DNA from: a virus
IMG/VR virus record: IMGVR_UViG_3300044630_006584
DNA length: 64,000 nt
Strand: one strand, 5' to 3'
In this document: positions 8,846 through 58,814 of the stretch, piece after piece
Position numbering within the stretch: the first letter of the stretch is position 1
Layout of the letters: each line of letters opens with the position of its first letter
Made by a program: the position numbers and the translations under genes
Notes under the pieces: generated by a model
The model's database searches: none
Told to the model about the DNA's origin: nothing
The model's input: the letters and a program-made list of their open reading frames with translations, nothing else

Positions 8846-9088
8846 ATGAAGAAATTTTCAACAGTTAAGGAATTAAACGAAATGGAGTTTGCACAACCCC
8901 TTATAAACTCCAAAGAAAACATGATGGATCTGCTTGTAGCAGCTTCTGGAAATGATCAAAGAGTTTTGATTGACATTGTAAATTGTCTAACAGAGGATCA
9001 AATGAAGAAGTGCTACAATAAGCTCATTAAGGTTTATGGATACACTGGCGCAGCTGGACAAAGAGTTGAGTTGAAGTCAAGAGCCTAA
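8846..9088 (+). CDS. Small protein with capsid-targeting-like N-terminus
   Basis: MKKFSTVKELNE start; GATATATA at 8818-8825. Confidence 0.55.
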   Translation: MKKFSTVKELNEMEFAQPLINSKENMMDLLVAASGNDQRVLIDIVNCLTEDQMKKCYNKLIKVYGYTGAAGQRVELKSRA

Positions 9089-9091
9089 TTT

Positions 9092-9814
9092 ATGATTCTA
9101 GTAGGAATAGACTTTTCCTTAAACTCACCTGCTTTTTGTGTGTTAGCCGATGGTAAGTACCATTGGGGATCAATCACTAGGTCTGACAGAGACCGTGATT
9201 CCCTTTTGAAGAACGCAAAGAAGCCTTATGCTGTTCTATCAGCTAGTTCCGATTTCAGAATAGAGTTCCTAGATAGAAAACCTATTCCTGATGAATATTC
9301 GGAAAGGGAAAGAATAAAGATCGACTATTTCCTGGATGTTGTTCTGACTTTATGGAATGGCATCTGTGACATAATAGACAATAAAGGGGAAGAGGTTAAG
9401 ATAGCTATGGAGGGACTTAGTTTTTCCTCTAATGGTAATGCATTGATCGATATATCAATGGCTACAGCGCTATTAAGAGAAAGAATATGCAGCCACATAG
9501 GAAGCGATAATTTCTACGTTTTCTCTCCTACGTCTATAAAAAAATTCGCTTTAAAGGGTAATGCTAAGAAGGACGAATTATATGAGGCTTTGAGTACTAG
9601 AGAAAAAGACGGAACAAACTTGGATAATTTTTGTAGAATACTAGCAGATAACAAATCTGAATGGGTTACAGGAGCGAAAGCTGTGAATAAGCCGGTTGAT
9701 GATTTAGTAGATGCAACTTGGATTTTATTATACTTAAGAGAAATATTAGAAGGTAAAAATGAGAAAAATTTGGAGAAAACTAAGAGCAAAAAAAAGAAAC
9801 TGGCTAAAGCCTGA
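9092..9814 (+). CDS. RuvC-like Holliday junction resolvase
   Basis: MILVGIDFSLNSPA, IAMEGLSF, PTSIKKFALKGNAKK and DDLVDA catalytic motifs. Confidence 0.8.
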   Translation: MILVGIDFSLNSPAFCVLADGKYHWGSITRSDRDRDSLLKNAKKPYAVLSASSDFRIEFLDRKPIPDEYSERERIKIDYFLDVVLTLWNGICDIIDNKGEEVKIAMEGLSFSSNGNALIDISMATALLRERICSHIGSDNFYVFSPTSIKKFALKGNAKKDELYEALSTREKDGTNLDNFCRILADNKSEWVTGAKAVNKPVDDLVDATWILLYLREILEGKNEKNLEKTKSKKKKLAKA

Positions 9815-9938
9815 TCAGCAGCGTTCTGCAGCTGTATCTAAAATCAATAGCGACTTATTAAATTTGGGAAACTCATCTAGAATGGGCCAAATTATTACTG
9901 TCCTTTGCAAAAGCCACGAAACAAAAGTAAGTAATTAA
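9759..9938 (+). CDS. Possible 59 aa basic protein missed by the ORF track
   Basis: Open frame MRKIWRKLRAKKRNWLKP...HETKVSN fills the gap between the resolvase and SSB genes. Confidence 0.3.
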   Translation: MRKIWRKLRAKKRNWLKPDQQRSAAVSKINSDLLNLGNSSRMGQIITVLCKSHETKVSN

Positions 9939-9967
9939 ACTTAAATAAAAAAAAACAATTAAAAATT

Positions 9968-15006: not shown

Positions 15007-15014
15007 GATATATA
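15007..15014 (+). promoter_or_regulatory. Representative GATATATA late-type promoter
   Basis: Same octamer is intergenic and upstream of genes at 8818, 20919, 27842, 34524, 42826, 47455, 58893 (+) and 26310, 58819 (-); resembles T4 late TATAAATA. Confidence 0.65.
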
Positions 15015-15029: not shown

Positions 15030-15584
15030 ATGAAAATCAAGAATTTTGACCGATTCATATCGGAGAATAGAAGATATTATAGTTCAGATCAGAGATACGG
15101 TCCTTTAAAGGGGAAGCTTTCCATTTTCAAGGACAGAGAAAGATCTAGCGATATAGGAAACTGGTTAGAGGATATAAAGGGAAGGGTTAAGAGTGAGATG
15201 GTAGCCAGAGCGGATAGACCAGGAAAGACTAAAAATCTAGGAGATCCTTTGGGAGTTTTAGGTTCGATATCTGGTTTTCTTCTTAATCTAGGAGCTGGAG
15301 TTAGCGATGCCCTTTTCGGAGACGCTAAAAAAGGAGAAGACTATAAAAAGAGAAGCAAAGAGGATTTAGACAGATGGGAAAGAAAAACATTTAGCGGGGA
15401 TCAGAAAAAAGTTACAGATAAGGATGCTGCTAGTTTTTACATGAATGGTGTGGAAAGAGGCAAGAAAATTTTCGGTAAAGACTTCGATCCAGACAAACCA
15501 AAGACTGAGGAAGAGAAAAGATATGCTGAGGATCTATACGATGCAACATCGAGATATTACGGTAGAATAAATCAAAAGAGATAA
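15030..15584 (+). CDS. Hypothetical protein with capsid-targeting-like N-terminus
   Basis: MKIKNFDRFISE; GATATATA at 15007-15014. Confidence 0.6.
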   Translation: MKIKNFDRFISENRRYYSSDQRYGPLKGKLSIFKDRERSSDIGNWLEDIKGRVKSEMVARADRPGKTKNLGDPLGVLGSISGFLLNLGAGVSDALFGDAKKGEDYKKRSKEDLDRWERKTFSGDQKKVTDKDAASFYMNGVERGKKIFGKDFDPDKPKTEEEKRYAEDLYDATSRYYGRINQKR

Positions 15585-15591: not shown

Positions 15592-16518
15592 ATGAGATTA
15601 AAAAATTTCGTTGAGTTTAAGAATGTATCTGAAGGCGGGAAGGCTATTAAAAGCGCTAGACCAATCAGACAGGACGAAGCTATGAAAACTATAGAAAATA
15701 TAAAGGAGGTTTTATTACCTCTTTTAGATCTTGATTCCTATAAAGAGGGAAAGGATTATATTTTTATAGGCTCAACTGGAAAAAAGAAAAATCCAGAGGA
15801 CACGTCCGGTGATATAGATCTTGGATTTAACGGAAATTATTTTGCTACCAAGCATGGCATATCATTTAAAGAGTGCTCAAAGACTCTCATGGATATGCTA
15901 AGTCCCGAACTACCTAAAGTTCTTGGATTTGAGCCTGAAATGAATAATCTATCTGGACTGAATATACTTAGTGTAGCTTGGCCAATAGCTGGTGATGCAA
16001 ATAACGGGTTTGTTCAATTGGATCTTATGCCTCTTCAAAATATGGAATGGGCGAAGTTTATCTATTATTCACCTGATTATAGAACGGACGAAAGCCAGTG
16101 GAAATCTGCTCATAGGAATTGGCTTTTGAGTGCAGCTCTTGTTGCAAGGAGGGAGATATTGGCTAATGATGAGCAAGGTGAGGTTTTAGATTACAGAACA
16201 CCTGCTTTGATCCTGCCTAGTGGTTTATACCTTCAAACCAAAAGCTTTAGAGGTAAATTAAAGCCAAGATTAAAAAATGCCCAGAAGATTCCAGGAACGG
16301 AGGAATTCATAACAGACGATCCTCAGGAATTTATAAATTATGCTCTTGGACCAGGGTACAGCGAGAATGATGTTAAAACATTCGAAAAAGTTTTATCTAT
16401 AATGACTTCTCCGAATTTCAAATATAAAGAATTTCTTCCCCAGATAAAGGAGAAGTTTATACAATTACTAAATAGAACAGATTTACCAGTTCCACCTGAG
16501 ACAGAAAAATTAGGTTGA
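15592..16518 (+). CDS. Pol-beta-superfamily nucleotidyltransferase
   Basis: IGSTGKK...SGDIDL motif and a later VQLDLM third acidic residue. Confidence 0.75.
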   Translation: MRLKNFVEFKNVSEGGKAIKSARPIRQDEAMKTIENIKEVLLPLLDLDSYKEGKDYIFIGSTGKKKNPEDTSGDIDLGFNGNYFATKHGISFKECSKTLMDMLSPELPKVLGFEPEMNNLSGLNILSVAWPIAGDANNGFVQLDLMPLQNMEWAKFIYYSPDYRTDESQWKSAHRNWLLSAALVARREILANDEQGEVLDYRTPALILPSGLYLQTKSFRGKLKPRLKNAQKIPGTEEFITDDPQEFINYALGPGYSENDVKTFEKVLSIMTSPNFKYKEFLPQIKEKFIQLLNRTDLPVPPETEKLG

Positions 16519-18503: not shown

Positions 18504-19589
18504 ATGCAGGTTTCAAAAGGAAAACCTAAAAAATCAGAAACGCCGGAGGATATAGTTGCTTTAGAAATAGAGCAATGTAAATCTATTCTTGGTTCCATGT
18601 CCGATAGATTGGAGAAATTTGATTTATCCGGTGTAGACGAAGCCGGGCTCAGAAAGCTGAAAAAACTAATAAAGAATATAAAAAGCTCTTCCTCTCTTGT
18701 AGATATTATACACGATAATAATAAGAGATCTAGCCAGATTATAGAAACACTATATAAAGTATTCTTTAGCAGGTCTAACGAGGATTCGCGTATTATGTTC
18801 AGAAAGGGATACGTTGAGGATTTCTACATTAATCTAGATCCTGCTACCTTAGATACCATAGAGAAAAGATTCATTAAAAAACAGCCAATCAAGGGGTCTA
18901 TAAGTTTCTCCGATGCTGTAAAGAACGGTACAACTGATATAGGATGGATTGATAGTTTTAATGGAATCTCTAGAAAAGACCTGAAGGAGATTTATACTAT
19001 AGATGCCTACTTTCCAAGCGGTAAAAGAAGAAGAGGTAAGGGTGAAACTCTTTCTTGTCTTTCTTTTGGTGGCTTTATCAACAATGAGAGGGGAGCGGAT
19101 GTTTTTATAGACGGCAATCGTGTTGAAGTAAAGTCTACTATAAGCGCATCTATTACCAGCGAGGATAATCTGGTATCCCCTAAGATTAAGCAGTTTATAG
19201 ATCTGTCATATAGGATAAGTGGCAAATCAAAAAAGAAGGAGAAAACATACGGTAAGAGATCCCTGAATCTTCTCATAGCTAAGATAAAATCTAGTCAAGT
19301 AAAGGCAAACGAGTTCTGGAAGAGATTTCACCAGATAGTTGGATTTAGGACCGACCGTGATCCGGATAAGATAGTTCCAATATTAATATGTCATCAGATA
19401 GAGCATTACTCTAAGCCAGAGAACTTTAACACGATGATAATCTATAGTGAGAATACAGGGGGATTTCCAGATGCCCTTTCCGTTCTAGTGAAGAATGAAT
19501 CATTTGTAAACGATCGAAACATAGAGATACTTAACGACTTGAATATATACTTCAGGGTTTATCCCAATAAGGTAGAAATATTTTTATAA
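18504..19589 (+). CDS. PD-(D/E)xK restriction-endonuclease-fold protein
   Basis: GKGE...ADVFIDGNRVEVKS motif. Confidence 0.6.
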   Translation: MQVSKGKPKKSETPEDIVALEIEQCKSILGSMSDRLEKFDLSGVDEAGLRKLKKLIKNIKSSSSLVDIIHDNNKRSSQIIETLYKVFFSRSNEDSRIMFRKGYVEDFYINLDPATLDTIEKRFIKKQPIKGSISFSDAVKNGTTDIGWIDSFNGISRKDLKEIYTIDAYFPSGKRRRGKGETLSCLSFGGFINNERGADVFIDGNRVEVKSTISASITSEDNLVSPKIKQFIDLSYRISGKSKKKEKTYGKRSLNLLIAKIKSSQVKANEFWKRFHQIVGFRTDRDPDKIVPILICHQIEHYSKPENFNTMIIYSENTGGFPDALSVLVKNESFVNDRNIEILNDLNIYFRVYPNKVEIFL

Positions 19590-19590: not shown

Positions 19591-20133
19591 ATGGCTTCAA
19601 TTAAAAAATTTAATGAATTCTTAGAATCTGTTTTCGAGTCCGATGGATTTGGAACAAAACCCTTTCTTTTAAGGAAAGAAAAGGACATCTTTAACTATCT
19701 CTTCTACATAGACACAGGAGAGGAAGGAAAACAAGATGCCTTTAGACTTATGATTGGTAAATACTCAAGCCATCAGGTTATAGATCAGCCTAAGAACTCA
19801 TATTGCGTGCTTAGCGTTAATAAGCTATCATCCGAACAACTAGAGGATATATCGGTAACCAAAGCTGATTTGCCACCTACGACATCCTCAGAGTTTAAAA
19901 TGTCGGAAAGCGAGGTATCTAGACTATTCGAAACCATTTCTAAATGTATTTTGGATTATCTGGAGTATAATGCTAAAGTATCTAAGATTTACGACGAGAT
20001 ACAGGATAATCTAGTTTTCTCCGGTGAAGGCACCTATATGGAATTTATGAAATCTATAATTATTTCATATTTAGGCGAAGATTGGAGTGTACAGGAGGGA
20101 GTTGATAAAAATTCAATTTTAATCTCCAGATAA
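19591..20133 (+). CDS. Hypothetical protein with capsid-targeting-like N-terminus
   Basis: MASIKKFNEFLESVFE. Confidence 0.6.
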   Translation: MASIKKFNEFLESVFESDGFGTKPFLLRKEKDIFNYLFYIDTGEEGKQDAFRLMIGKYSSHQVIDQPKNSYCVLSVNKLSSEQLEDISVTKADLPPTTSSEFKMSESEVSRLFETISKCILDYLEYNAKVSKIYDEIQDNLVFSGEGTYMEFMKSIIISYLGEDWSVQEGVDKNSILISR

Positions 20134-21394: not shown

Positions 21395-21808
21395 GTGAAA
21401 AACGTACTTTCTTTTTCAGATTACGATCCAGCGGATGAATACAAATCCGAATTAAGGAGGGAGCTAAACCTTAATTCTGCTAGAAGAAGCCCTGCTTACA
21501 AGGAGCTTCTTCGTATGGGATTTGAGGAGGTAACATCAGATCAACAGGAACTTAATAACACCTTGAAGTTTATTAGAACCAGAAGACATGCTAAGGACAA
21601 GGGTCACGATTTTCCTTTCTATACTATACATCCATCTGGGACTGTTAGAAGATACAATCCTCCGAAGTCAGCTGAGCAACCAGAGGGAAGCGGAAACGAC
21701 ATTAAAAATTTCCCAAAGCCTTTCATAAGAGGAAGAGATTATATAAAAGCTATTAAGTATCTAATAGGCTATCTAGAGAGAAAAGAAGAGAAAGGTGATT
21801 ATAAATAA
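21395..21808 (+). CDS. Hypothetical protein
   Basis: MKNVLSFSDY N-terminus of the recurring motif type. Confidence 0.55.
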   Translation: MKNVLSFSDYDPADEYKSELRRELNLNSARRSPAYKELLRMGFEEVTSDQQELNNTLKFIRTRRHAKDKGHDFPFYTIHPSGTVRRYNPPKSAEQPEGSGNDIKNFPKPFIRGRDYIKAIKYLIGYLERKEEKGDYK

Positions 21809-25949: not shown

Positions 25950-25986
25950 ATTCTTTTTGTCGATCTATCGAAGCTGTATAAATTAC

Positions 25987-34507: not shown

Positions 34508-34556
34508 TTTCTAAAATTTGTTTGATATATAGACTATTAAAAAATAAAAAATAGAA

Positions 34557-43831: not shown

Positions 43832-45022
43832 TCTTCTTTGGCCGGAGCAATATCAAAACTAGCAAGGCCATTCGGTTGCTCCTTCCAGATATTAGAAGGT
43901 GATGGATTTTTTGGATCGCCTGTTAACCCTTCGCCATCCGCTCCTAGGTACACCTCTGTTAGAATTAACAATAAGATAAAAGAGCTAATAGAAAAGCACT
44001 CCGATCTTAACGAGGCAAACGAAGAGGGATCTCACGATTGGATTCACGTGGAAATGCCTATAGGTCTTATGACCCATATGGTTGGTATTGCAGTTGGCTA
44101 TAGAACTAATATACTACCCAGAAAAATGGAGGATGTTATAGAGTACCTCTCGGGTCAGCCTAAATTATTGAAGCCGCATTTCCGAGATTTTTCAGGCAAA
44201 GTAACCAAGTATAATAATGAGGAGAACACATGGTTAATAGAGTCCGGTCTTGAGGTCAATGCCTCTAAGAAATCAATGAGAATATTCGATCTTCCGCCAG
44301 CTATCAGATACGATAGCTTTATGGTGAGGCTTGAATCAAAGCTTGATCTATTAGGATGTGAATACCGCATAGAAAATAAATCTCAGAGTAAGTGTGATCT
44401 TACAATTACATTCCGTGGAATTGACGACGATAAGTTCAAATACGTTTCCGATAATATTTCAAGGATTACAAAGATTATAATCAAGGAAGATATTGTTTTA
44501 GTCAAAGACGGGGGAGTAGCTGAATATGGATCAATAAAGGAATACCTGGATCAATTTAAGGTACATCTGGAAGAGGTAAGATTGAAAAGACTGAAAAAAG
44601 ATGCATTGAATCTTTTGTCTGATCTTGAGTTTCTAGAAGCAAAATTAAAGTTTCTAAATTTCATGATACAGAAGAAAAGAAGTAATTCAGAGATCTCCCA
44701 GTTCTTGTCAGTGTACAATTCAAGGATAACATCAAGATTACAGAGAATAGAAGCAGTTAAACTAAGCGTAGAAAGCATAGAAGAGACTAAGAGCGAGATC
44801 GAGCGTATTAAGAAGGCAACAACAGAGAATAAGAAAGCTGTTAAAGAACAGGAGACAAAATACAAAGAGGCAAAGAAGCTTTTAAAAAAGCTATCGAAAC
44901 CACTGGTTAGGACTAACTCACTATTCGAGCCCACCGAGATTGACGGGATAGAAATATTCCAGCCGGAAGAGGAATCAGAAGAAAAAGAGGGGGAAGATCA
45001 AGAATTAGACGAAAACATTTAA
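43715..45022 (+). CDS. IntC fused to the topoisomerase gp52/GyrA C-extein
   Basis: After HN: SSLAGAISKLA...GDGFFGS...APRYTS (active-site Tyr)...GIAVGYRTNILP. Confidence 0.92.
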   Translation: MRIKSIKKIILDSPKPFYDITVEKYSNFSIGKSNIISHNSSLAGAISKLARPFGCSFQILEGDGFFGSPVNPSPSAPRYTSVRINNKIKELIEKHSDLNEANEEGSHDWIHVEMPIGLMTHMVGIAVGYRTNILPRKMEDVIEYLSGQPKLLKPHFRDFSGKVTKYNNEENTWLIESGLEVNASKKSMRIFDLPPAIRYDSFMVRLESKLDLLGCEYRIENKSQSKCDLTITFRGIDDDKFKYVSDNISRITKIIIKEDIVLVKDGGVAEYGSIKEYLDQFKVHLEEVRLKRLKKDALNLLSDLEFLEAKLKFLNFMIQKKRSNSEISQFLSVYNSRITSRLQRIEAVKLSVESIEETKSEIERIKKATTENKKAVKEQETKYKEAKKLLKKLSKPLVRTNSLFEPTEIDGIEIFQPEEESEEKEGEDQELDENI

Positions 45023-45053
45023 ACTAAACATCTAAAACTATAAAAGGAAAAAA

Positions 45054-45836
45054 ATGATAAAACTAAGAATCACCAGTACCAACAATCTGATTAATTTTCT
45101 CAAGCGATTGAAACCCGTAGATAGAAGCGTGCTTCTAGAACTAACGTCCGATAACATTTTCTGTAAGGTTCACACACCGGATAAGGCTGTTATGAAATTT
45201 GCTTCTCTAGCTTTCGGTGAAGTTTTCGAAGGTGAGATAACATGGAAAGACATTCTTAAGGGTAAGACTCAAGAAGAAAGAGTTAAAATTGGATTGATTG
45301 AGGTTGGTAAATTTATGGATTGCTTCAAGCATTTCAGACCAGAAGAGGATGTTTTCATGGAGATATCAACTGAGGTGTTAGAGGGAAACCTTGTAGCTAC
45401 AGATGTGCTTCTGACCTCTAAATCTCTACACATTAGAGTTAAATGTGCTGATCTATCTCTTCTCTCCTATGTTGATGATAATATTTTGGATATGGTTCAC
45501 TCTAAGGAAGACACTATTGCCCAATTTAAGATTTACCAATCTGATTTTTCATCAATAGTTTCGTTATGTGGATTGGAAAGTAATTCGGAAGAACTTCTTT
45601 ATTTTGACGTGTCCAGCAAGGAGGTTAGAGCTAAAGGTGAGTCATTCAATTACAAAATCAGCATCTCTCCAGAAGAGATAAGAGTTGATAGCGACAATGC
45701 TACTTCGCAGATCTACAAAACCCAACTTTCCTACATGGAATCTGAAACTTGTGATTGTTATGTACATGAAAACAGATTGGTTTTATTCTCGCAGCAGAGT
45801 AACACGTCTATTGCAATTGGTATTGTAATTAAATAA
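45054..45836 (+). CDS. Probable DNA polymerase sliding clamp (gp45/PCNA-like)
   Basis: 260 aa, alternating alpha/beta two-domain pattern, directly upstream of the polymerase C-half. Confidence 0.55.
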   Translation: MIKLRITSTNNLINFLKRLKPVDRSVLLELTSDNIFCKVHTPDKAVMKFASLAFGEVFEGEITWKDILKGKTQEERVKIGLIEVGKFMDCFKHFRPEEDVFMEISTEVLEGNLVATDVLLTSKSLHIRVKCADLSLLSYVDDNILDMVHSKEDTIAQFKIYQSDFSSIVSLCGLESNSEELLYFDVSSKEVRAKGESFNYKISISPEEIRVDSDNATSQIYKTQLSYMESETCDCYVHENRLVLFSQQSNTSIAIGIVIK

Positions 45837-47186: not shown

Positions 47187-47463
47187 AGAGGAAATAGATT
47201 TCGAAATGTCTGCAGAGGATTTGCAGCTCTATAAAGATACTGTGACCAGTGAGTACTTCACCATATTTTCAAACAAAGAAATCTTTGTTAAGACAGACAA
47301 AGTAAATGATGGAAGAAAAGTACAGAAGCTTTATGAGATACTCGATCTTTTTATACTGGAAGGAATGCAGGACGAAACTATCTGCCAGATAGAATCCCTT
47401 ATTGATGCTCTAACTATTAAGATACTAGTTGAAAAAGATATCATTCCCAGCGCTGATATATAA
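47164..47463 (+). CDS. Hypothetical acidic protein
   Basis: 99 aa ORF overlapping the previous gene. Confidence 0.5.
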   Translation: MKEKMGFEEEIDFEMSAEDLQLYKDTVTSEYFTIFSNKEIFVKTDKVNDGRKVQKLYEILDLFILEGMQDETICQIESLIDALTIKILVEKDIIPSADI

Positions 47464-47478: not shown

Positions 47479-48966
47479 ATGCTTATCACCGAGAGAGTCC
47501 TTAGGTTTGGCAACTTTTTAAACGAGTCAGCCAGTAATAGCCCAGTTAATGTCGTTATATTATCAGGCACAGCGAAGCCAAGCAAGACATCAAAGCAATT
47601 TATGAAGGTATGCTCCGATAGAGGTATAGAATGCCATGTTATAAATGTTAATAATGCTAGGATTAAAAAAGTCTATAATGGACACGTAATTGAGGATATA
47701 GCTAACAATGTTAAAGTTTCTATAGATCCAAATACAACAGCCATCATACCGAGAAGAGGAGTTATCAATAACTCCCATACTATTTCGGTTATGAAAGCAT
47801 TGGAAGATGCTAGATACTTCTGCGTGAACACGCTAGATTCAATATTAGCTTGTGAGAATAAATTCACCACTTGTGAAATAATGGAATCCCACGATCTACC
47901 AGTTCCTAAGTTTGCACTGGTTCCAGATGAGAAATCTCTGGACGCTGCTCTAGCATCTGTTGGAGGTAAATTCCCGATTGTTATGAAATTACTTTCTGGC
48001 TCCCAAGGAATAGGGGTTTCTTTGGTTGATTCTTATTCATCACTTAAGTCGGTTTACCAGACAATTAAGAAACTAAATCCAACTAGTGAGATCCTATTAC
48101 AGGAGAAAATTGATTCGGATTTCGATTTAAGAATACAGGTACTTGTTAAAAAGCTTAATGCTTTGGAGCCGGAGGACGATAATGCTGTTATCCTGGGTGT
48201 TATGAAAAGATCTGCAGTTAAAGGGGATTTTAGAACCAATTATTCACTGGGCGGATCAGTTTCTAAATATGAGATAGACGACGATCTTACTGAAATGGCG
48301 ATTAGAGCTGCTACTGCAGTTGGCTGCCACTGGTGTGGCGTTGATATCATGATCGATAGCAAAACAGGCAAACCTTATATCCTGGAAGTTAATGCTTCCC
48401 CTGGAACTGAAGGTATTTCTAAGGCCATAGATAAGCCTATTGTTAATGATGTTATAGACTATGTCACTAAGAAATCAAATTGGACATTCTCTAATCTAGA
48501 GGTTGGATATCTGGAGAATATCAAGATACCAGGAATAGGAGAGATGATTGCTAAATTTGACACAGGTAATGGAGCTAAGTCTTGTACTATACACGCAGAT
48601 AAAATAGAAAAAAAAGGTGGTAAATTAATTTGGTCTATAGGCAGCAAAGAGTTTACCTCTGATATTATGGGATATAGCATGGCGGAGGTTGGATCTGATA
48701 TCGATAAAAGACCCATTATACATCTAGATATAGAATTTAACTCTGTTAGAGTTAAAAATGTAAGGGTATCTCCAGTAGACAGAACAGAGAAAAGCACACC
48801 ATTTCTTGTCAATAGAGCATTTATGAGAAGACTGGGTCTTATAGTTAATCCACATAAGGCTTTCTTAGCAACCAAAGAGCCAAAAGATGAATATTCTCCT
48901 GGAGAATCTAAAGGTGAACCACATGCTGGAATTCTTTTCAAAGAATCAAAAAAGAACAAGAAATGA
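47479..48966 (+). CDS. rimK: RimK-like ATP-grasp ligase fused to a retropepsin-like (RimB / ATP-dependent Zn protease family) domain
   Basis: ENKF, KLLSGSQGIGV, LLQEKI, DLRIQV, FRTNYSLGG, GVDIM, LEVNASPG; C-terminal AKFDTGNGA.S...RPII...DRTEKSTPFLVNR. Confidence 0.85.
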   Translation: MLITERVLRFGNFLNESASNSPVNVVILSGTAKPSKTSKQFMKVCSDRGIECHVINVNNARIKKVYNGHVIEDIANNVKVSIDPNTTAIIPRRGVINNSHTISVMKALEDARYFCVNTLDSILACENKFTTCEIMESHDLPVPKFALVPDEKSLDAALASVGGKFPIVMKLLSGSQGIGVSLVDSYSSLKSVYQTIKKLNPTSEILLQEKIDSDFDLRIQVLVKKLNALEPEDDNAVILGVMKRSAVKGDFRTNYSLGGSVSKYEIDDDLTEMAIRAATAVGCHWCGVDIMIDSKTGKPYILEVNASPGTEGISKAIDKPIVNDVIDYVTKKSNWTFSNLEVGYLENIKIPGIGEMIAKFDTGNGAKSCTIHADKIEKKGGKLIWSIGSKEFTSDIMGYSMAEVGSDIDKRPIIHLDIEFNSVRVKNVRVSPVDRTEKSTPFLVNRAFMRRLGLIVNPHKAFLATKEPKDEYSPGESKGEPHAGILFKESKKNKK

Positions 48967-49280
48967 ACAATATATTATTATTTGAGGATTTCCTCCAGGA
49001 GCTAAGCCTTTCGGATGACATACAAAAGAGAATCAAGGAGTGGATGGCTAATAACGAATCAGAATTTGATTTTAAAGACGATAGCAGCTTTGAGGAAAAT
49101 GCGGATACGGTAGTGGATGACTGTATGACTGATCTAAACATAAACAAATCTCTAAAGAGTGATGTTAAGGATTTCATGCAGAATCAGATGGACTTATCCG
49201 ACGGCATATCTGTTATCATGAGTCCGGGAAAAGAACTTAACCTGAATCCTATCGACCAGGTTCAGAGATTCCAATATTAA
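48963..49280 (+). CDS. Hypothetical acidic protein with capsid-targeting-like N-terminus
   Basis: MNNILLFEDFLQE. Confidence 0.6.
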   Translation: MNNILLFEDFLQELSLSDDIQKRIKEWMANNESEFDFKDDSSFEENADTVVDDCMTDLNINKSLKSDVKDFMQNQMDLSDGISVIMSPGKELNLNPIDQVQRFQY

Positions 49281-51357: not shown

Positions 51358-51721
51358 GGGGATGTTAATGGCATTGACGTGCAACGGAAGTTCTTTGAGA
51401 TGATGCAGGCAGTGTTAGATGGAAACACTTTAAATACCTATCAAAACGATAAATGACAACTCTTACGTAGAGTCAGCTGAGTTTGCTCTTGCAGCCTAAG
51501 CTACGGGTCGGTACGACCTAGGAACAGAAAGTACCCAGAAGCTGTACACAGCAAACCCGAAGAAATCAGACATCTGATGGATTCACTGACTAACGCTGAA
51601 GTCAGATCAAAAAATACAGCAAAAACAGTTTGTACGGAGTTCTGATAAACCGATACTAAGCCTGTGAACGAGTCCTCTGCGCTTGTTGAGACGGACCCGG
51701 GTTCGACCCCCGGCATCTCCA
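51358..51721 (+). ncRNA. ssrA: tmRNA (one-piece); tag (A)DNSYVESAEFALAA at 51455-51499; CCA not encoded (CTA follows)
   Basis: Acceptor stem GGGGATG/CATCTCC-A with G3:U70, 5' GGCATTGAC, T-arm CCGGGTTCGACCCCCGG, ALAA-ending tag after ATAAAT. Confidence 0.93.
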
Positions 51722-51723
51722 CT

Positions 51724-51806: not shown

Positions 51807-52208
51807 ATGATTTATTTATTTGCAATTTTAGCCTTGACTATAGCAGTCATAGTGGGCTACCAGATTTACTCAGCTGTATCCAAGGATCAAAAGAAGATCG
51901 ATCGTGAAATGGAAGAAGAGCCAACAGTATTAGATAATGGGATAGATTACACGACATCAGAGCCAGAGACTTTCAAATACGATGAGATTAAATGGGAATC
52001 TACAGCTACTGTAGAATCCACAATCGATTACACATTGGCAGGAACTACAGTAACACAAGTTGTTGAAGTAAAAGAGGAAAAGCCTAAGAAGAAGAAAAGC
52101 TACTATAAGAAAAAGGATAAGAAAAGCTCAGGCGAAAAAGCAGCTCCTAAAATGAAAGCTAAGGGACCTAAAAAGAAAGGCGGAAAAGACGATTTGCTTT
52201 TAAGCTAA
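51807..52208 (+). CDS. Membrane-anchored protein with lysine-rich tail
   Basis: N-terminal TM helix, acidic middle, KKKK-rich C-terminus. Confidence 0.6.
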   Translation: MIYLFAILALTIAVIVGYQIYSAVSKDQKKIDREMEEEPTVLDNGIDYTTSEPETFKYDEIKWESTATVESTIDYTLAGTTVTQVVEVKEEKPKKKKSYYKKKDKKSSGEKAAPKMKAKGPKKKGGKDDLLLS

Positions 52209-52225
52209 AATATTCGAAATAAAAT

Positions 52226-52257
52226 AAAAAAACCCTGAGATTATCTCAGGGTTTTTT
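52226..52257. terminator. Bidirectional terminator between convergent genes
   Basis: AAAAAAACCCTGAGA-TTA-TCTCAGGGTTTTTT. Confidence 0.85.
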
Positions 52258-52674
52258 GTTGCCTAAATATTTATATTTTTCTAATTTACGCCTGTAGTCT
52301 AATTCATACGTGTAGCAAATAACATCCTCTAGATTATCTTCCATATCGACCATTGAATTTATAAAGAAGAGTCTCATTGATTCTTTGATTAGAATTGCAG
52401 AAAGATCTTCTATAGATCCCTGCTCGAGCTCTTTAACCGGTATAAGGATAGCACCATTTGAGAAAGACATTATGGAATCAGAATCCCAGAAATCTATCTT
52501 ATTACAGTTATCCAAAAGAATATTATACATGGAACTATCTGTTTCCTCTACTAGTGAAATAGCAGAATTTACCTTATCCTCTAATTTCCCGTTGGTCCCA
52601 GATATCACTATCTGTGAGCCAGCATTCAAAGAAATTGACAACAACGCTAATGTAATTGGAATGTTAAGTTTCAT
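52246..52674 (-). CDS. Secreted/periplasmic hypothetical protein
   Basis: Signal peptide MKLNIPITLALLSISLNAGS. Confidence 0.55.
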   Translation of the reverse strand: MKLNIPITLALLSISLNAGSQIVISGTNGKLEDKVNSAISLVEETDSSMYNILLDNCNKIDFWDSDSIMSFSNGAILIPVKELEQGSIEDLSAILIKESMRLFFINSMVDMEDNLEDVICYTYELDYRRKLEKYKYLGNKKP

Positions 52675-52679
52675 GTGTA

Positions 52680-53237
52680 TTAAGCTTTTTCTTCCTCTGT
52701 GCCCTCAGTGTATTCCTCTGTGTAGTTCACATCAGCAGGTTCTTCGTACACATCAGCAACCGGTTCTTCATATGGTTCTACCACAGGCTCGTTATGAAAA
52801 GCTACAGGCTCCTCCACTACTGGCTCAGAAACAACCTCTTCTTTTCTTATAATTATAATCGGCTCCTGAGGAGGTCTTGGAGTTGTTGGATACTCGGTAA
52901 CGCTAGATAGGCTACTTCCATCCTCCTCGTCAACCTTTTGGATTAACATCTTGTCTCTGTCTTCTGAATTGAACCAATAGTCAACTACTTTGTTTAGGTT
53001 ACCAACAAAGGCTCCAAACAGGATCAGAAGCATTTCTTTCCAGTTTTCTGCTATTTCCAATTGGAACATAACTGCCATATTGATACCGAAAATAATAAAG
53101 AAGAACAAGAACAATACTATCCCTGTAATTCTCCATCTGTTTGCCTGCATCTGTTGTAACATGTAGTAGAAACGGTTTTTGTCCTCTACCTTTACATAAG
53201 GCGCTTCTTGAAATAACATCCTTTTTAATCTGCTCAT
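52680..53237 (-). CDS. Two-TM membrane protein with acidic Pro-rich tail (holin-like motif)
   Basis: Two TM helices ending LLILFGAFVGNLNKVVDYWFNS; EEPVA repeats. Confidence 0.6.
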   Translation of the reverse strand: MSRLKRMLFQEAPYVKVEDKNRFYYMLQQMQANRWRITGIVLFLFFFIIFGINMAVMFQLEIAENWKEMLLILFGAFVGNLNKVVDYWFNSEDRDKMLIQKVDEEDGSSLSSVTEYPTTPRPPQEPIIIIRKEEVVSEPVVEEPVAFHNEPVVEPYEEPVADVYEEPADVNYTEEYTEGTEEEKA

Positions 53238-53246
53238 TTTTTTAAT

Positions 53247-53933
53247 TTATTTTTCTTCTTTGCTAGGGGATGACCCGTACTTAACACCGAGAATAGTTCC
53301 AACTATACTGAAACTGTTTGTTAACAGGATACCGAACATATTACTCCAGGTGGAGCCTATAATATCAGTGTCCATCCCTATTGTCATAGAGTAAACATAA
53401 ATTCCAGTAGTTATTGTCCCTACACCGATGATTACATATAGAGCAACCCTAACAATATTATTTATTAACTCAAATTGAGTTTTCTTTTGGATTAGGTCCA
53501 GGTTGTTTTCCGCTTCTTTCTTAGCGTTTTCTGCAATGACTCTTGCTTGTTCGGATTGTTTCATAGCCTCAATAAGCTCAGCCCCTATCTTTTCATTTTC
53601 TTTTTTCCATTCAAGAAGTTCTGAGTTTTGGCTTTCAATTTGATTCTTTTGGTCCTCCATACTTGTTAAAGTATTCTGGAGTTCCTCCATCATTCTTTGA
53701 TTTTCCTCGTTTAACTCAGTTAAGTCTTTGTTCTGAACTTGTACCTGTTTAGTTATCTCCAAACGTTTACGTCTAGTTAGCCCATCCTTTTCAATACAAC
53801 TTTTAAGATACTCCTTAAACTCTTCGTCGTCTTGAGCGTCTATCAATTTAGTGATATTACCTTCAAGACCAATGTTCTTGGTCTTAAAAGTTTCAAGCAA
53901 TATCTTCTTTGTATCTTTATCTAAAACAATCAT
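53247..53933 (-). CDS. Coiled-coil protein with two C-terminal TM helices
   Basis: Long heptad region, then VALYVIIGVGTITTGIYVY and MFGILLTNSFSIVGTILGV. Confidence 0.65.
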   Translation of the reverse strand: MIVLDKDTKKILLETFKTKNIGLEGNITKLIDAQDDEEFKEYLKSCIEKDGLTRRKRLEITKQVQVQNKDLTELNEENQRMMEELQNTLTSMEDQKNQIESQNSELLEWKKENEKIGAELIEAMKQSEQARVIAENAKKEAENNLDLIQKKTQFELINNIVRVALYVIIGVGTITTGIYVYSMTIGMDTDIIGSTWSNMFGILLTNSFSIVGTILGVKYGSSPSKEEK

Positions 53934-54364
53934 TACTTATAAACTTTGAAAGGAGCAGTTCTATTTCTATATCCGTCGTAGTCCTTTTTAAATTCCTCGA
54001 GTCTTGGCTCGATATCATCGGACTTAATAATCCAAAACTGAGCACCTGCCTGAAGAGCTTTAGCTTGTTCTTCAGGTTCGTTACTTGAAGAGATGATACC
54101 AATTACTACGTGGTTACCATATTCAAAGTTAACCTTACGTATAAGCTCTATACCATCAAAGGATGAACCTATAATGTTTAAATCCACAAAAACACACTCG
54201 GGTCTTCCGTTTGGATCTTTTTGCCAGTCAGCAAATAGCTTGGCAGCTTCATCAGAGCTATTTAAACTCTTCAATGACAGTGTAATGTCCAGCAGTGAGC
54301 AGCTATCTTCAAAAACTAGATGAAAAAGATTTTCATCGTCGACTAATAAAATTGAATCTATCAT
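53933..54364 (-). CDS. Single-domain response regulator (receiver only)
   Basis: LLVDD, phospho-acceptor VFVDLN, FDG, IISSS, conserved Lys in WIIKSDD. Confidence 0.88.
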   Translation of the reverse strand: MIDSILLVDDENLFHLVFEDSCSLLDITLSLKSLNSSDEAAKLFADWQKDPNGRPECVFVDLNIIGSSFDGIELIRKVNFEYGNHVVIGIISSSNEPEEQAKALQAGAQFWIIKSDDIEPRLEEFKKDYDGYRNRTAPFKVYK

Positions 54365-54372
54365 TTTTTTCT

Positions 54373-55695
54373 TTATTTTATTTTTATTTTCATCCTGGTC
54401 CCACTTTCAATTTTTTCACAACTCAATTTAAAACCATGTTCTTCTAATATTGCAACACATATGTTCAATCCAAGACCCTTCTCGTCACCAGTGACATCAG
54501 CCTTCTTTGAATATTTTGTTAAATGTTTTTCAAATTGTTTTTGTGAGAATCCTCTGCCGTTGTCCTCAACTATTAAATATTCTTCCTCGTTATATATTTT
54601 AACCTTTTTAGATTCGCTATCGTTATATGACAAGCCATTCTTAATTAAGTTCTCAACCGCGTTACAGAATAAAGTCTCATTTACTTCCAGGTCACCCAAG
54701 TTAGCTATCTCAACCTGTGAACTATATGAATTTGGTGATACGTATTTCCAAATCAAATCTTTAGCGTTAACCACAGATTTATTTAATACAACATTTTGTT
54801 TAACAAGATTAGTGAATTCATATACACTCTTATAAACTCTCTGGGTATGACTCAATCCCTCTTTAACCATCTTAAGTGCCCCTTCGATCTTTAATCTTTG
54901 GATGTCCTCAGCGGTTAATCTTTTTTCTAATGAACTAATACCCCTTGGCATATATGTGTTGATACCTGAGTGCATGTCATGCCGAATGATTCTTGCCGCA
55001 TGCTCCAAATAGCTGTTCTTCTTAGCAATATCACTAATCTGTTGTTCAATTTCAACATCTTGTACATTTATTCTTTTTCTCTGTAAAACAACAGCTAACA
55101 TTAAACCGAACAAAACTAAAACACCTAAAGAGCTATAAAGATATTTCTTTAAGGTTTCTCTTTCTTTTTCTAAATCAGTTTTCTCGTGTATTAAGTTTCC
55201 ATTCTCATCTGTTAAGTCACCAGTCTCCAAAGTTAAACCGATAATATTCTTTTCTTTACCTAATGAACCGATTGTATTTTCTTTGGATTTAATAAGTTCT
55301 TCATTTCTAACCGCTTGAGCCAATAGTGAATCTCGCTCAGCAGTAAGTTTAGCAAGTTTATTATCAATTTGAGCTAATATATTTTTCAAATTTTCTTTAG
55401 GTAAATCACTATATGAATTTGGTAAATCTTCCATGAATTTAACATCCTCAGTGATACTTGCTAAATCCCCCGCTGAAAGTTTAGTGACATCAACAGGTTC
55501 TGGCTCTGGTTCTGGAGAAACCCAAGTGGTAATAATTTCTTGTATACTCATAGCAGAAACTTGTAAAGTATCCAGATCATCATTTGTCCACGATGTGTCT
55601 ATCGCATCAACGATAGTATCTTTATAACTAACTTCTTGCGAATATGAACTTGATGTTACAAGGATAGCTGAAAGTAAGAGTATCATCTTTTTCAT
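54373..55695 (-). CDS. Sensor histidine kinase (signal peptide, extracytoplasmic coiled coil, 1 TM)
   Basis: H-box RIIRHDMHSG, N-box ENLIKNGLSY, G1 EDNGRG, G2 GLGLNIC. Confidence 0.88.
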   Translation of the reverse strand: MKKMILLLSAILVTSSSYSQEVSYKDTIVDAIDTSWTNDDLDTLQVSAMSIQEIITTWVSPEPEPEPVDVTKLSAGDLASITEDVKFMEDLPNSYSDLPKENLKNILAQIDNKLAKLTAERDSLLAQAVRNEELIKSKENTIGSLGKEKNIIGLTLETGDLTDENGNLIHEKTDLEKERETLKKYLYSSLGVLVLFGLMLAVVLQRKRINVQDVEIEQQISDIAKKNSYLEHAARIIRHDMHSGINTYMPRGISSLEKRLTAEDIQRLKIEGALKMVKEGLSHTQRVYKSVYEFTNLVKQNVVLNKSVVNAKDLIWKYVSPNSYSSQVEIANLGDLEVNETLFCNAVENLIKNGLSYNDSESKKVKIYNEEEYLIVEDNGRGFSQKQFEKHLTKYSKKADVTGDEKGLGLNICVAILEEHGFKLSCEKIESGTRMKIKIK

Positions 55696-56297
55696 TTCTT
55701 TAATAAGTTTTTATTTTTCCAAATCCTTTGTTCATATAATCTAAGCTCTTTTTCAAAATCTTTAAATTGAATACCTTTAAAATAGTCAACAGCGGGGTAA
55801 TATTCTTGATTATATTGTTTTTTTAATTCATTCCAATATTCATATTCCTTTGGAGTCATTCTAATCAATTGAATTGTTTCTCCATAATCAATGCTGGTCA
55901 TGTTGTAATCGTCTAGGTTTATGAAGTAGATGGAATTGTAAGGTGGGATTGTGTATACCAAACTTGGTCCAGCCGCCAACTCAAATAATATAAGATTAAT
56001 TTCATCCGCCCATTTGTAAGTTGTGTCAGCAACATATTGAATACTATCAACCGTACCGTTAAGTTTAGTTACCGCGTTAGTTAAACTGTCAATCTTTTTA
56101 TTTTGTGCCAGTATTTTTTTATTCTGTTCTCTTATAATTTTTCTTTGAGTATCGATTACCTTATTAACATCTAAAGATTGCTTGATAGTTAAAATAACAA
56201 CAGAGTCACCCTTATAGATTGTTTGAATTGGGTATTTTAACTGTCCCGTAGTAACAGCGGAAATCATTAAAAAGATTAAGGTTATTAGTGTTTTCAT
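55692..56297 (-). CDS. Secreted coiled-coil protein
   Basis: Signal peptide MKTLITLIFLMISAVTTG; heptad region; overlaps both kinase genes. Confidence 0.6.
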   Translation of the reverse strand: MKTLITLIFLMISAVTTGQLKYPIQTIYKGDSVVILTIKQSLDVNKVIDTQRKIIREQNKKILAQNKKIDSLTNAVTKLNGTVDSIQYVADTTYKWADEINLILFELAAGPSLVYTIPPYNSIYFINLDDYNMTSIDYGETIQLIRMTPKEYEYWNELKKQYNQEYYPAVDYFKGIQFKDFEKELRLYEQRIWKNKNLLKK

Positions 56298-57883
56298 TTG
56301 AATTTAATTTTCATTTTAGTTCCTATTTCGTTTTTCTCACACGTAATTTGAAACTTATGTTCTTCCAAAATTGCCACACAAATATTTAATCCTAAACCAG
56401 TCCCTGATTCTTTCTGACCCTCTTTTCTTGTGTAAGGCTTAGATAAATGATTAAAATCATCCTGGGTAATTCCTCTACCGTTATCCTGTATATAGATTGT
56501 GTTTTCGTCTGAATAGAGCTTAACGAATTTTGAATCCGAATCGTTATATTTTAAACCATTTCTGATCAGGTTGTCTAGTGCAGTACAGAACAGAGGCTCG
56601 TTTACTTCTATGATTGGTAGAGTGTCGTCTAGTATAACCTGACTAATGTAAGCTGTAGATGACAGATAATCATGCAGTATGTACTTAATGCTGCATTCAG
56701 CTTTATTCAGAACAACATCCTTTTTAACCAGATTGGTGAACTCGTAAACACCTTTATAAACTTTCTGAGAATGTTTAAGACCCTCCTTAATCATTTTAAG
56801 TGGGGCTTCGATTTTAAGATTAGTAATATCCTCTTGTGTCAATCTCCTTTCCAATGAGTTAACACCTCTTGGCATATAAGTGTTAATCCCGGAATGCATA
56901 TCATGTCTTAGTATTTTAGCGGCGTGTTCTAAATAAGTGTTTTTCTTTTCAATCTCCTTTTTTTGTTCGTAAGATTGAGTGACGTCTGTTGCAATTTTCA
57001 TAACACGATAAATCTTACCGTCAGTGCCAATAATAGGATTGTAAGTGGCTTGTAAATAAACTAAAGACCCATCTTTTTTAACTCTAGAGATCTCACCAGA
57101 AAATAATATACCTCCCCTTAATTTTTTCCAAAAAAGAGAATAGTCTTCACTTTTTTCATATTCAGCATCTACAAAAATTCTATGATGCTTTCCAACTACC
57201 TCATCCTGTGAAGAATATCCCATAGTTTCTAAAAACAAATTATTAGCAAAAATAATATTACCGTCTAAATCAAACTCAATAACAGCATTAGATTTGTTTA
57301 TGGCGTTCATTCTGTTACGAATTTCCGCTTCTTTTTTCTTAAGCTCCGTGATGTCTTGCCTGATAGATAAAAAACCATCTAATCTCCCATCAGTTCCAAA
57401 TCTTGCCCTGATGTATGTGTCAACGTAATATAAACTGCCATCTTTGGCTTTATTAGTTACCACGTCATTCCATATCTCACCCTTCATAACGGTCTCGTAC
57501 ATTTTACCCCAATATCCGTCAGGTTGTGTGCCTGAATTAACTATTGAGTGGTCCTTACCAATTACTTCTTCAAGCTTCCAACCAGATACCTGTTCAAACT
57601 TATCATTAACATAAGTTATTTTACCTTTCCTATCTGTAATCGATACGATTGCCGCCTTATTAATAAATTTATCTGTCTCGTCAAGCTTTTTAGATTGGCT
57701 TTCCCTTACCTCTCTGATTATTAAGTAAAAGAGGGGTACGAAAAGAAGGAAGCAGGAGTATTCTATTCCCCTAGTTAATCTTGTTGACTCAATAATCTCA
57801 AATAAAACTGCTGTTTTAATAATAAAAAAAACAGACATGATTAATGAGCTGAGAAATAGATAGACTTTTGATTTTTTATTCAT
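56294..57883 (-). CDS. PAS-PAS sensor histidine kinase (2 N-terminal TM)
   Basis: PAS1 ITDRKGKITYVNDKF...KAKDGSLYYV, PAS2 IEFDLDGNIIFANNLF...KKDGSLVYLQATYNP, H-box KILRHDMHSG, DNLIRNGLKY, QDNGRG, GTGLGLNIC. Confidence 0.9.
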   Translation of the reverse strand: MNKKSKVYLFLSSLIMSVFFIIKTAVLFEIIESTRLTRGIEYSCFLLFVPLFYLIIREVRESQSKKLDETDKFINKAAIVSITDRKGKITYVNDKFEQVSGWKLEEVIGKDHSIVNSGTQPDGYWGKMYETVMKGEIWNDVVTNKAKDGSLYYVDTYIRARFGTDGRLDGFLSIRQDITELKKKEAEIRNRMNAINKSNAVIEFDLDGNIIFANNLFLETMGYSSQDEVVGKHHRIFVDAEYEKSEDYSLFWKKLRGGILFSGEISRVKKDGSLVYLQATYNPIIGTDGKIYRVMKIATDVTQSYEQKKEIEKKNTYLEHAAKILRHDMHSGINTYMPRGVNSLERRLTQEDITNLKIEAPLKMIKEGLKHSQKVYKGVYEFTNLVKKDVVLNKAECSIKYILHDYLSSTAYISQVILDDTLPIIEVNEPLFCTALDNLIRNGLKYNDSDSKFVKLYSDENTIYIQDNGRGITQDDFNHLSKPYTRKEGQKESGTGLGLNICVAILEEHKFQITCEKNEIGTKMKIKFK

Positions 57884-57941
57884 TGGATTATATATTCTGG
57901 ATTTTCAAAATAAGGGGTCCATAAATCCAATTTAGCCCAAT

Positions 57942-57971
57942 AAAAAAAAGGATCCCATAAGGATCCTTTTT
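57942..57971. terminator. Terminator (symmetrical) downstream of the 57993..58814 gene
   Basis: AAAAAAAAGGATCC-CATAA-GGATCCTTTTT. Confidence 0.75.
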
Positions 57972-57992
57972 CGTCTAAGTTGGTTGGATTTT

Positions 57993-58814
57993 TTATTTCC
58001 CCTTGGAGTACATCGCATCAGTAAGAAGTCCCTTACTTTTTAGATATTCCATATATGCGTTTTTGATCTTTTCCTGATCCTGATTTATCTCAGATGCTAT
58101 TTTAGTAATTGCAGTTTTTTCTGCTTTTTTAATATCTGAAAATAGAGGGGATGCAGATCTTAAAGAATTTATCAAGCTAAACACCTTCATGCCTGTCTTA
58201 ATGTCGGATTCTTTTTTATCTTTTCTTTGCTCGGCTGCTCTATCCAATGCATCCATAGCCTTGTCTCTGTTTTGAGTAAAGGAAGGATCCTGTATTGCGT
58301 TTGCTGCTATACCAGCTAGTTCTGATGGACTTTTACCTTGGAATCTATTGAAAGCTTTTATTAACTTAGGGTAGATAGCTTCGCTTGAATCCTCGGTTAT
58401 ACCGTTTAGAAGATTTACGAATTTTTTAGTTGTTCTTATCGCTGTCGTGTAAGAATCTAATCCGATAGCATCAGAGAAAGCTGGCAGAGTGATTTTGAAA
58501 GCTCCCGATGTTTTATCATTCATACCAAATTGATCTATACCTGGTATCATAACGATGTATTTAGCAGTTTCTCCTTCTGCCTTACCCAAAGCTCTCAGAT
58601 ATATTGCAGCCAATTGCTCAGGTGTAAGTATTTGGAAATCCCTAGCAAAAGCTGCTTTTTCACCTGAAGTTAATTCCACTTGCAAATCCTCCTCTGAATC
58701 AGCGGAGCTTAAATCGGATTCGTATAAAAAACCCTGGATCATTTTCTCATAAACTTTATTCACTAAAAGTTCTATAGAGAAATCTTCAAAAAGTTTAATT
58801 TTTCTATTTTTCAT
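57993..58814 (-). CDS. Hypothetical helical protein with capsid-targeting-like N-terminus
   Basis: MKNRKIKLFEDFSIE; minus-strand GATATATA at 58819-58826. Confidence 0.6.
   Translation of the reverse strand: MKNRKIKLFEDFSIELLVNKVYEKMIQGFLYESDLSSADSEEDLQVELTSGEKAAFARDFQILTPEQLAAIYLRALGKAEGETAKYIVMIPGIDQFGMNDKTSGAFKITLPAFSDAIGLDSYTTAIRTTKKFVNLLNGITEDSSEAIYPKLIKAFNRFQGKSPSELAGIAANAIQDPSFTQNRDKAMDALDRAAEQRKDKKESDIKTGMKVFSLINSLRSASPLFSDIKKAEKTAITKIASEINQDQEKIKNAYMEYLKSKGLLTDAMYSKGK

Follow-up and report, generated by a model that had tools for sequence, protein, structure and literature searches.

What does it mean when a dozen proteins with nothing else in common begin with the same short peptide? 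The question is raised by a 64-kb stretch of phage DNA of ~37% G+C (IMG/VR record IMGVR_UViG_3300044630_006584; "the window" below means this whole stretch), in which the pattern Φ-K-x-F-x-(D/E)-F-Φ-x-E, where Φ is a hydrophobic residue, heads 12 of 84 open reading frames (ORFs), or about one gene in seven. A first inspection of the sequence, called here the original prediction, had likened this tag to the capsid targeting sequence (CTS) of T4 internal proteins and proposed that the phage packages an enzyme cargo and injects it at infection. Our analysis supports a similar answer. We estimate a probability of roughly 0.7 that the common peptide is this clade's version of the T4 CTS joined to a prohead-protease site and that, by analogy with T4, the phage packages the tagged proteins in its head and injects them with its DNA at infection.

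The tag is strongly enriched over background. A regular expression written after seeing examples ([ILV][KRL].[FWYL].[DEN][FY] within the first 16 residues) matched 11 of the 84 window N-termini against 0.32 expected from interior windows. A position-specific scoring matrix (PSSM) of 12 columns, cut off at the 99.8th percentile of interior-window scores, matched 12 of 84 against 0.13 expected. Relatives, both close and distant, were taken from IMG/VR, the main comparisons being G002 (180 kb, ~90% DNA identity to the window, 66% complete) and the complete genomes G003 (290 kb) and G004 (271 kb). In these the PSSM matched 16 of 243, 35 of 386 and 23 of 353 ORFs, respectively, with at most one expected in each. 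As a guard against circularity, the matrix was retrained on G003 and G004 alone; it still recognized 10 of the 84 window N-termini as opposed to 1 of 657 interior windows (binomial P=1.7e-16), and only 1 of 308 N-termini in the AT-rich jumbo phage PTm1, used as a control. Eleven of the twelve examples listed in the original prediction pass the profile (genes starting at 15030, 15592, 19591, 25949-, 26286-, 31927, 34557, 40745, 47479, 48963 and 58814-, where a trailing minus sign denotes the minus strand). The twelfth, 8846, fails with a score of 1.1, and 21395 is a member that had been missed.

The claim that the tag joins otherwise unrelated proteins was also upheld, since BLASTP among the 12 tagged window proteins minus their tags found no pair at E<1e-3. 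At the conserved positions the codons differ (ATC/ATT/ATA/TTA/GTA; TTT/TTC/TAC/TGG; GAA/GAG/GAT) and the residues show conservative swaps (I/L/V, F/Y/W, D/E), which suggests that selection acts on the peptide and not on the DNA. The F-x-x-F...E skeleton persists in orthologs that are 31-69% identical, while the remaining tag residues differ. Pfam domains, which bear out the three enzyme calls made earlier, start behind the tag: at residue 27 in the adenylate kinase (Adk; ADK, E=1.8e-36), at residue 24 in the RimK-like protein (RimK_N; RimK, E=1.9e-34) and at residue 16 in the FMN reductase (FMN_red). In AlphaFold models built from ortholog alignments, residues 1-20 of the kinase have a predicted local distance difference test score (pLDDT) of ~50 and the fold begins at strand 24-28; residues 1-16 of the nucleotidyltransferase (NTase)-like protein 15592 fall below 50 and likewise lie outside the fold. 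Judged by these alignments and models, the tag is appended to the catalytic folds and lies outside them.

The resemblance to T4 can be followed residue by residue. In T4 (AF158101), IPII and IPIII begin MKTYQEFIAE and IPI begins MKTFKEFTSTTTPVSTITE. A profile built on the clade only gave IPII and IPIII the two highest scores among 269 T4 ORFs (15.5 and 15.3; threshold 8.2), and both also scored above threshold with a profile trained without the window; IPI agrees with the profile at its MKTFKEF core only. Amber-suppressor mapping by Mullaney and Black showed that targeting by the T4 CTS depends mainly on residues 4 and 7 (Tyr and Phe) (PMC9026906), and processing on residues 8 and 10 (Ile and Glu) (PMC9026906). 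Counted over 70 tag instances, the best-conserved columns are two aromatics three apart, a hydrophobic residue, and then a Glu two further, and these four coincide with T4 CTS residues 4, 7, 8 and 10. The aromatic columns hold F or Y in 66/70 and 66/70 instances, and Glu occupies the residue-10 column in 35/70, against an estimated background below about 10%. In 11 of the 12 window tags a hydrophobic or small residue, any residue and Glu follow within the next residues, the tag of the FMN reductase being the exception. The ranking of IPII and IPIII and the coincidence with mapped CTS residues thus favor the T4-like reading of the tag. For the tagged window proteins this kinship is confined to the tag: BLASTP of them against T4 ORFs gave no match at E<1e-5, and no homology to the bodies of IPI, IPII or IPIII was found. 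As a side observation, the third of the 269 T4 ORFs by this profile is gp61.1 (gene 61.1, AF158101 18966-19130, minus strand, a hypothetical protein of 54 amino acids), which begins MKTFKEFIKE; from its rank, it may be a CTS-bearing protein so far unrecognised.

The window's own head genes lie outside the available sequence, and the head module was read in G003 and G004. There the order is a tagged NTase, a 905-amino-acid putative portal, a 650-676-amino-acid protease-scaffold, the capsid protein and several tagged genes. Six or seven tagged genes lie within the module, close to the genes for the putative portal, the protease and the capsid protein. Both Peptidase_S77 and Peptidase_S80 match the protease domain, which aligns with T4 gp21 across a His (ELDHPE vs ELNHPP) and a Ser (SISSRAAGS vs GVSSRGLGS). 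This His (DHP) and Ser (SSR) of gp21 are conserved in both genomes, and we take them to be catalytic. The protease is present in at least 124 clade contigs. The capsid protein belongs to the Gp23 family (E=2e-41), and its N-terminal region aligns with the T4 gp23 propeptide. Its cut-site candidate, HSLNE↓SAGAY (the arrow marks the putative cut), is invariant in 44 distinct relatives, and many tags end in a similar manner (FLNE↓S, FVNE, AINE↓S). Because tags and capsid protein share L-N-E↓S-like endings, one protease specificity would serve both.

The C-terminal, scaffold-like part of the protease ORF provides what we regard as a new lead. It consists of tandem 14-residue units, Y-[ST]-[EK]-Y-[LVI]-A-E-N-[LV]-x-x-x-I-x, in 14 copies in G003 (43277-45307; L033:3277-5307) and 13 in G004. 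Together with 73 further clade loci among L086-L165, 74 of 74 complete clade ORFs have 8-17 repeats, with a period of 14 throughout. The repeat core, Y-x-x-Y-L-A-E, equals the heptad of the tag and is near the Y-Q-E-F-I-A-E of T4. Scored on the core columns of the tag profile, nine of the 14 units in G003 exceed 6 bits, and the density of ΦNE in the array is 7.7x the proteome average. The annotation of its PTm1 homolog combines scaffold and protease. Since the repeat core equals the tag, we propose that each tag acts as a single free repeat of the scaffold, which would let cargo co-assemble with the array. The huge phage LR756500 has a degenerate form of the 14-residue repeat and PTm1 has a different, Trp-based one.

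The tagged genes also tend to share a promoter-like element. A scan for ATATATA within 80 nucleotides upstream, usually as GATATATA, found it before 7 of 12 tagged and 8 of 72 untagged genes in the window (Fisher P=7e-4), 20 of 35 and 45 of 351 in G003 (P=1e-8), and 15 of 23 and 43 of 330 in G004 (P=6e-8). Overall, ~58-65% of tagged genes have it compared to 11-13% of untagged ones, the consensus being (G/A)ATATATA. In G003 the octamer also precedes the putative portal, the protease and large structural-looking genes (putative sheath and fibre). Because it is common to tagged and structural genes, the octamer is most likely the clade counterpart of the T4 late promoter TATAAATA. This agrees with the earlier remark that many tagged genes carry a late-type promoter, given its presence before 7 of 12 of them and before head genes of relatives. 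Four tagged genes of the window without an octamer of their own (15592, 21395, 25949- and 48963) each lie directly downstream of an octamer-bearing gene, and a fifth, 31927, has a different upstream motif, TAGATAAATA.

Based on these observations, we propose the following sequence of events. Tagged genes, whose association with (G/A)ATATATA is observed, would be transcribed late alongside the head genes. The two aromatics of F-x-x-F, which match Tyr4 and Phe7 of T4, would then bind the assembling scaffold core, and the tag would probably join the array of 8-17 scaffold repeats as one more unit. Once the shell is closed, a gp21-type serine protease would, as in T4, cleave behind the Glu of each Φ-x-E, whether in a tag, in any of the scaffold repeats or in the invariant SLNE↓SA site of the capsid protein, so that the scaffold is dissolved and the cargo freed in the head. 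Finally, the cargo would be ejected with the DNA. From the window this cargo would comprise Adk, the RimK-like ligase, the flavoprotein, the NTase-like protein and eight others; in relatives, CHAP and SLT cell-wall hydrolases would be ejected too. A bolder form of this proposal is that one portable heptad, copied from the phage's own scaffold repeat, loads at least 10% of the proteome (35-50 proteins) into the head, and that the loaded set includes nucleotide-metabolism enzymes, a RimK-like ligase, a flavoprotein, NTases and wall hydrolases. We give this joint claim about even odds.

Several observations weigh against packaging and injection. The clade has no cultivated member, and a literature search did not find a virion proteome of PTm1, PAU, pT24 or MA9V. 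The window's protease and scaffold are deduced from relatives whose tagged orthologs are just 31-63% identical. Contigs nearest to the window have no protease, the nearest record, G001, being a 39-kb fragment without it, and a DNA comparison of 80 head-module loci with the window and G002 found no overlap. In about half of the tags Glu does not stand exactly three residues past the second aromatic, so that a longer linker is needed. The tag of the FMN reductase is the weakest of the twelve, with no clear Φ-x-E cut site, and 8846 drops out as a clear member. Adk and FMN reductase, both of housekeeping type, are unusual cargo with no T4 precedent. The late-promoter label for the octamer derives solely from its position before structural genes. 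Further, the close structural relatives PTm1 (1/308) and Lak-A1 (0/429, with TAG read as Gln) have no enrichment of the F-x-x-F tag.

The alternative that fares best grants that the tag binds the scaffold and is cut, but holds that the tagged proteins are assembly-phase components, expelled or degraded rather than injected. They might serve the core or scaffold as accessories, or be enzymes that gather where the head is assembled or that cleavage activates. The equality of tag core and scaffold repeat fits this idea as well, as do the several tagged genes inside the head module, the fact that T4 scaffold proteins are cut and then leave the head (PMC9026906), and the lack of an obvious role for Adk or FMN reductase in the first minutes of infection. 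However, in T4 the decapeptide is all that GFP, a nuclease and beta-galactosidase need to stay in the mature head and be delivered (PMC9026906, PMC3012670). Moreover, cut sites are rich in the scaffold part alone, the enzyme bodies being not unusually so as far as examined, and wall hydrolases among the cargo fit ejection. We therefore consider retention and injection the better account and this alternative unlikely. Less probable still is that the peptide addresses something other than the prohead, such as a modifying enzyme (in the manner of leaders of ribosomally synthesized and post-translationally modified peptides), a degradation pathway or another intracellular site. The tag is disordered in models, as leaders are, but the motif agrees position by position with the T4 CTS and also with the scaffold repeat and the capsid cut site; it has no hydrophobic core and is therefore not a Sec or Tat signal. 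A radical-SAM leader was considered and rejected, as the complete, tag-rich G003 and G004 have no radical-SAM gene. Finally, although N-termini of AT-rich phages are rich in Lys, Asn and Ile and many tags start with MK, a nucleotide-level start feature, a recent 5'-end duplication or chance is rejected as very improbable by the synonymous codons and conservative swaps at conserved positions, by orthologs that retain the F-x-x-F..E skeleton only, and by the controls (PTm1, 1/308; interior windows, 1/657).

With capsid targeting as the preferred reading, the tagged genes of the window can be considered individually. One of the enzymes is the adenylate kinase (31927-32568, plus strand, 213 amino acids), whose tag MNSSIKRFSDFVNE at 31927-31968 has a PSSM score of 26.2; F11 and E14 are invariant in 7 orthologs of 47-69% identity. 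The RimK-like ATP-grasp ligase fusion (47479-48966, plus, 495 amino acids) has the tag MLITERVLRFGNFLNE at 47479-47526 (PSSM 21.5), kept by orthologs at 63% identity, and the octamer GATATATA at 47455-47462 (plus). This octamer probably also serves the next gene (48963-49280, plus, 105 amino acids), the start of which overlaps the stop of the RimK-like gene; its tag, MNNILLFEDFLQE at 48963-49001 (PSSM 23.5), is kept by orthologs as well. The protein at 15592-16518 (plus, 308 amino acids; tag MRLKNFVEFKNVSE at 15592-15633, PSSM 15.5) was called a nucleotidyltransferase in the original prediction. F6, F9, E14 and GS..GDxD are invariant in its 8 orthologs, and the top Foldseek matches are all Pol-beta-fold NTases. 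These matches are weak (E 0.007-0.1), and a comparison of its profile with PDB sequences found none; we regard it as a probable Pol-beta-fold NTase.

The fourth gene with an assigned function, at 25098-25949 (minus, 283 amino acids), encodes an NADPH-dependent FMN reductase-like flavoprotein with the extension MENLREFQEFRTYSK at 25905-25949 (PSSM 11.1). It has no homolog in G002, G003, G004 or LR756500. At the same locus (window 25058-25993 vs G002 116822-117274), G002 has an unrelated tagged gene of 150 amino acids (MKHLILFEDYTSTE), and from this comparison the locus is a case of cassette-like exchange of putative cargo genes. The octamer GATATATA at 26310-26317 (minus) that precedes the neighboring 26286- (25987-26286, minus, 99 amino acids; tag MKNIKSLTDFLNE at 26248-26286, PSSM 21.1, kept by orthologs) probably serves the flavoprotein gene too.

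Pfam and PHROGs gave no match for 9 of the window's tagged proteins, and eight, including those at 48963 and 26286-, have no assigned function. The protein at 15030-15584 (plus, 184 amino acids; tag MKIKNFDRFISE at 15030-15065, PSSM 19.1) belongs to no known family, with no match in Pfam or PHROG, and the tag is kept in its G003 and G004 orthologs, which are 31-34% identical. The octamer GATATATA at 15007-15014 (plus), 15 nucleotides before its start, probably serves 15592 too. At 19591-20133 (plus, 180 amino acids) the tag MASIKKFNEFLE at 19591-19626 (PSSM 18.7) is preceded by AATATATA at 19542-19549 (plus), and orthologs read ..FSDFSFHMNE↓SDGFG and ..FGQFINNMNE↓SDGFG. The gene at 21395-21808 (plus, 137 amino acids) has the tag MKNVLSFSDYDPADE at 21395-21439 (PSSM 17.1), which its orthologs in G003 and G004 keep at ~60% identity; at 34557-35078 (plus, 173 amino acids), the tag MKHIKIYENFVSNVNE at 34557-34604 (PSSM 14.1) is kept at ~31% identity, with GATATATA at 34524-34531 (plus). 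Two proteins have homologs in G002 only and none in G003 or G004. One is the 503-amino-acid protein at 40745-42256 (plus; tag MSKVKSWTDFNKFSFSTIAINE at 40745-40810, PSSM 12.3; octamer GATATATA at 40705-40712, plus), which is 80% identical to its G002 homolog and had no match in Pfam, PHROG or the phage database, tblastn against 50,697 phage records included. The other is the 273-amino-acid protein at 57993-58814 (minus; tag MKNRKIKLFEDFSIE at 58770-58814, PSSM 21.9; octamer GATATATA at 58819-58826, minus), which is 91% identical to its homolog. The rejected 8846 (8846-9088, plus, 80 amino acids, MKKFSTVKELNE) has one aromatic residue and a score below threshold. It does have the octamer GATATATA upstream at 8818-8825 (plus), and its conserved orthologs read MKKYSELQELNE and MKKFTDLKQLNE.

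The candidate cargo of the window comprises the kinase, the ATP-grasp ligase fusion, the flavoprotein with its weak tag, the probable NTase and eight others. G003 adds two CHAP domains, an SLT transglycosylase, an OmpA-like domain, a GDPD phosphodiesterase, a PRTase-domain protein and another NTase. Wall-active enzymes are typical ejected virion proteins of other phages, and CHAP and SLT among the tagged proteins thus fit delivery by ejection. The tagged gene set differs even between genomes ~90% identical in DNA, as is the case at T-even internal-protein loci. The huge phage LR756500 (462 kb) has 31 of 572 ORFs tagged in the 400 kb covered (consensus MKYIKEYEDFINE). Two other sets of N-termini deserve mention. 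In the first 400 kb of Lak-A1 (MK250016, TAG as Gln), several proteins start ..K(K/A)LYE(N/S)I.........(I/L)NE (e.g., at 39000, 310297, 393226 and 216330), which may represent a paralog family or another tag variant. G003 carries a second peptide, MKNLKTY(R/Q/S)QLFES, on four genes (236158-239281 and 276158-276793), each with the ATATATA octamer before it or in tandem behind one; this peptide is nearer to the tag of the jumbo phage PAU than to F-x-x-F.

As for the source of the DNA, megablast with 9.4 kb of the window against the 50,697 phage records gave no DNA-level match. The capsid protein of the relatives shares 43-45% identity with its counterparts in Lak megaphages and LR756500; for Tenacibaculum phages PTm1 and pT24, Sphingomonas phage PAU, and phages of Chryseobacterium and Flavobacterium, the identity is 27-37%. 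On these identities the window is placed in a distant, mostly Bacteroidota-infecting branch of the T4 superfamily, its source being an uncultivated jumbo myovirus whose host, from the same kinship to Lak phages, other huge phages, PTm1 and PAU, is probably a member of the Bacteroidota. The largest clade genome has 434 kb. The window encodes a T4 gp32-like protein (Pfam) and a transfer-messenger RNA gene at 51358-51722 (plus; tag peptide DNSYVESAEFALAA; ARAGORN). Candidates for split topoisomerase II and DNA polymerase genes and for ribonucleotide reductase were recognized from N-terminal translations. DnaK-like (22787-24670) and DnaJ-like (39338-40390, MAKDYYSILGI...) genes were assigned by eye and are untagged. 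Minus-strand membrane and signalling genes at 52160-57943 have no counterpart in the 90%-identical G002, indicating an insertion or deletion between close relatives.

The T4 CTS has been known for thirty years and is in use as an engineering tool, its natural cases being mainly a few small anti-restriction proteins. Here a tag of the same type labels dozens of genes per genome in a widespread clade of environmental phages of 180-430 kb, ordinary-looking enzymes included. A review notes CTS-like sequences on small basic proteins of T-even phages only (PMC9026906), and our literature search found no paper tying them to huge phages or describing expanded tags. If packaging is correct, the injected proteome of uncultivated giant phages would be predictable from sequence alone and infection would start with a pre-made kit of injected enzymes, which would bear on host takeover by huge phages and on the reason for their many "cellular" genes. 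The correspondence of tag and 14-residue repeat would also offer a concrete answer to what the CTS binds in the T4 core, and the natural variants could be of use in T4-based protein-delivery vectors.

Comparison with known systems puts these predictions in perspective. Giant myoviruses such as phiKZ and SPN3US package tens of proteins that are cut after Glu by the head protease and ejected; their ejection and inner-body proteins and S80 prohead protease have been described (PMC7411985, PMC5694885). Our clade resembles them in that its protease also scores on Peptidase_S80. In contrast, its capsid and scaffold lineage is gp23/gp21-like and its cargo set differs, and the abstracts of these reports mention no common N-terminal address peptide (PMC7411985, PMC5694885). 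PAU (JQ362498), a jumbo relative with a capsid protein of 32% identity, has its own common N-terminal peptide, MKT[LI]xxL[YF]E[AS]xLNE, on ~20 proteins, among them gp152, annotated as scaffolding protein, and gp154, annotated as "internal capsid protein". The PAU motif has one aromatic residue, however, and its tagged genes (at ~100-114 kb, plus 9332 and 159561) are mostly small and lie around head genes, with no enzymes noticed, although no dedicated annotation was made. By its residues and the genes it heads, the PAU peptide is a lineage-specific counterpart of the tag.

The closest parallel is T4 itself. In both systems the signal sits at the extreme N-terminus of otherwise unrelated proteins, reads aromatic-x-x-aromatic-Φ-x-Glu (MKTYQEFIAE in T4; IKRFSDFVNE, for example, here) and has a longer-linker variant (IPI in T4; 34557 and 40745 here). 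Relatives of the window encode the corresponding head proteins, with a protease of the gp21 family, a putative scaffold and a capsid protein of the gp23 family, and internal-protein or cargo genes are exchanged between close strains, as at the T-even internal-protein loci. The differences lie partly in detail, since the tag here has 2-4 extra residues at the front and mostly Asn at P2, and the protease of the clade is fused to the scaffold. They lie more in extent: T4 has 3-4 tagged proteins, compared with 12 among the 84 window ORFs and no fewer than 23-35 in each complete genome, and its cargo consists of small basic anti-restriction proteins, whereas here metabolic and nucleotide enzymes and wall hydrolases are tagged too. 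Packaging in T4 rests on experiment, while this clade is known from its genes alone. Read from those genes, the signal is the same as in T4, and the scale and cargo differ greatly.

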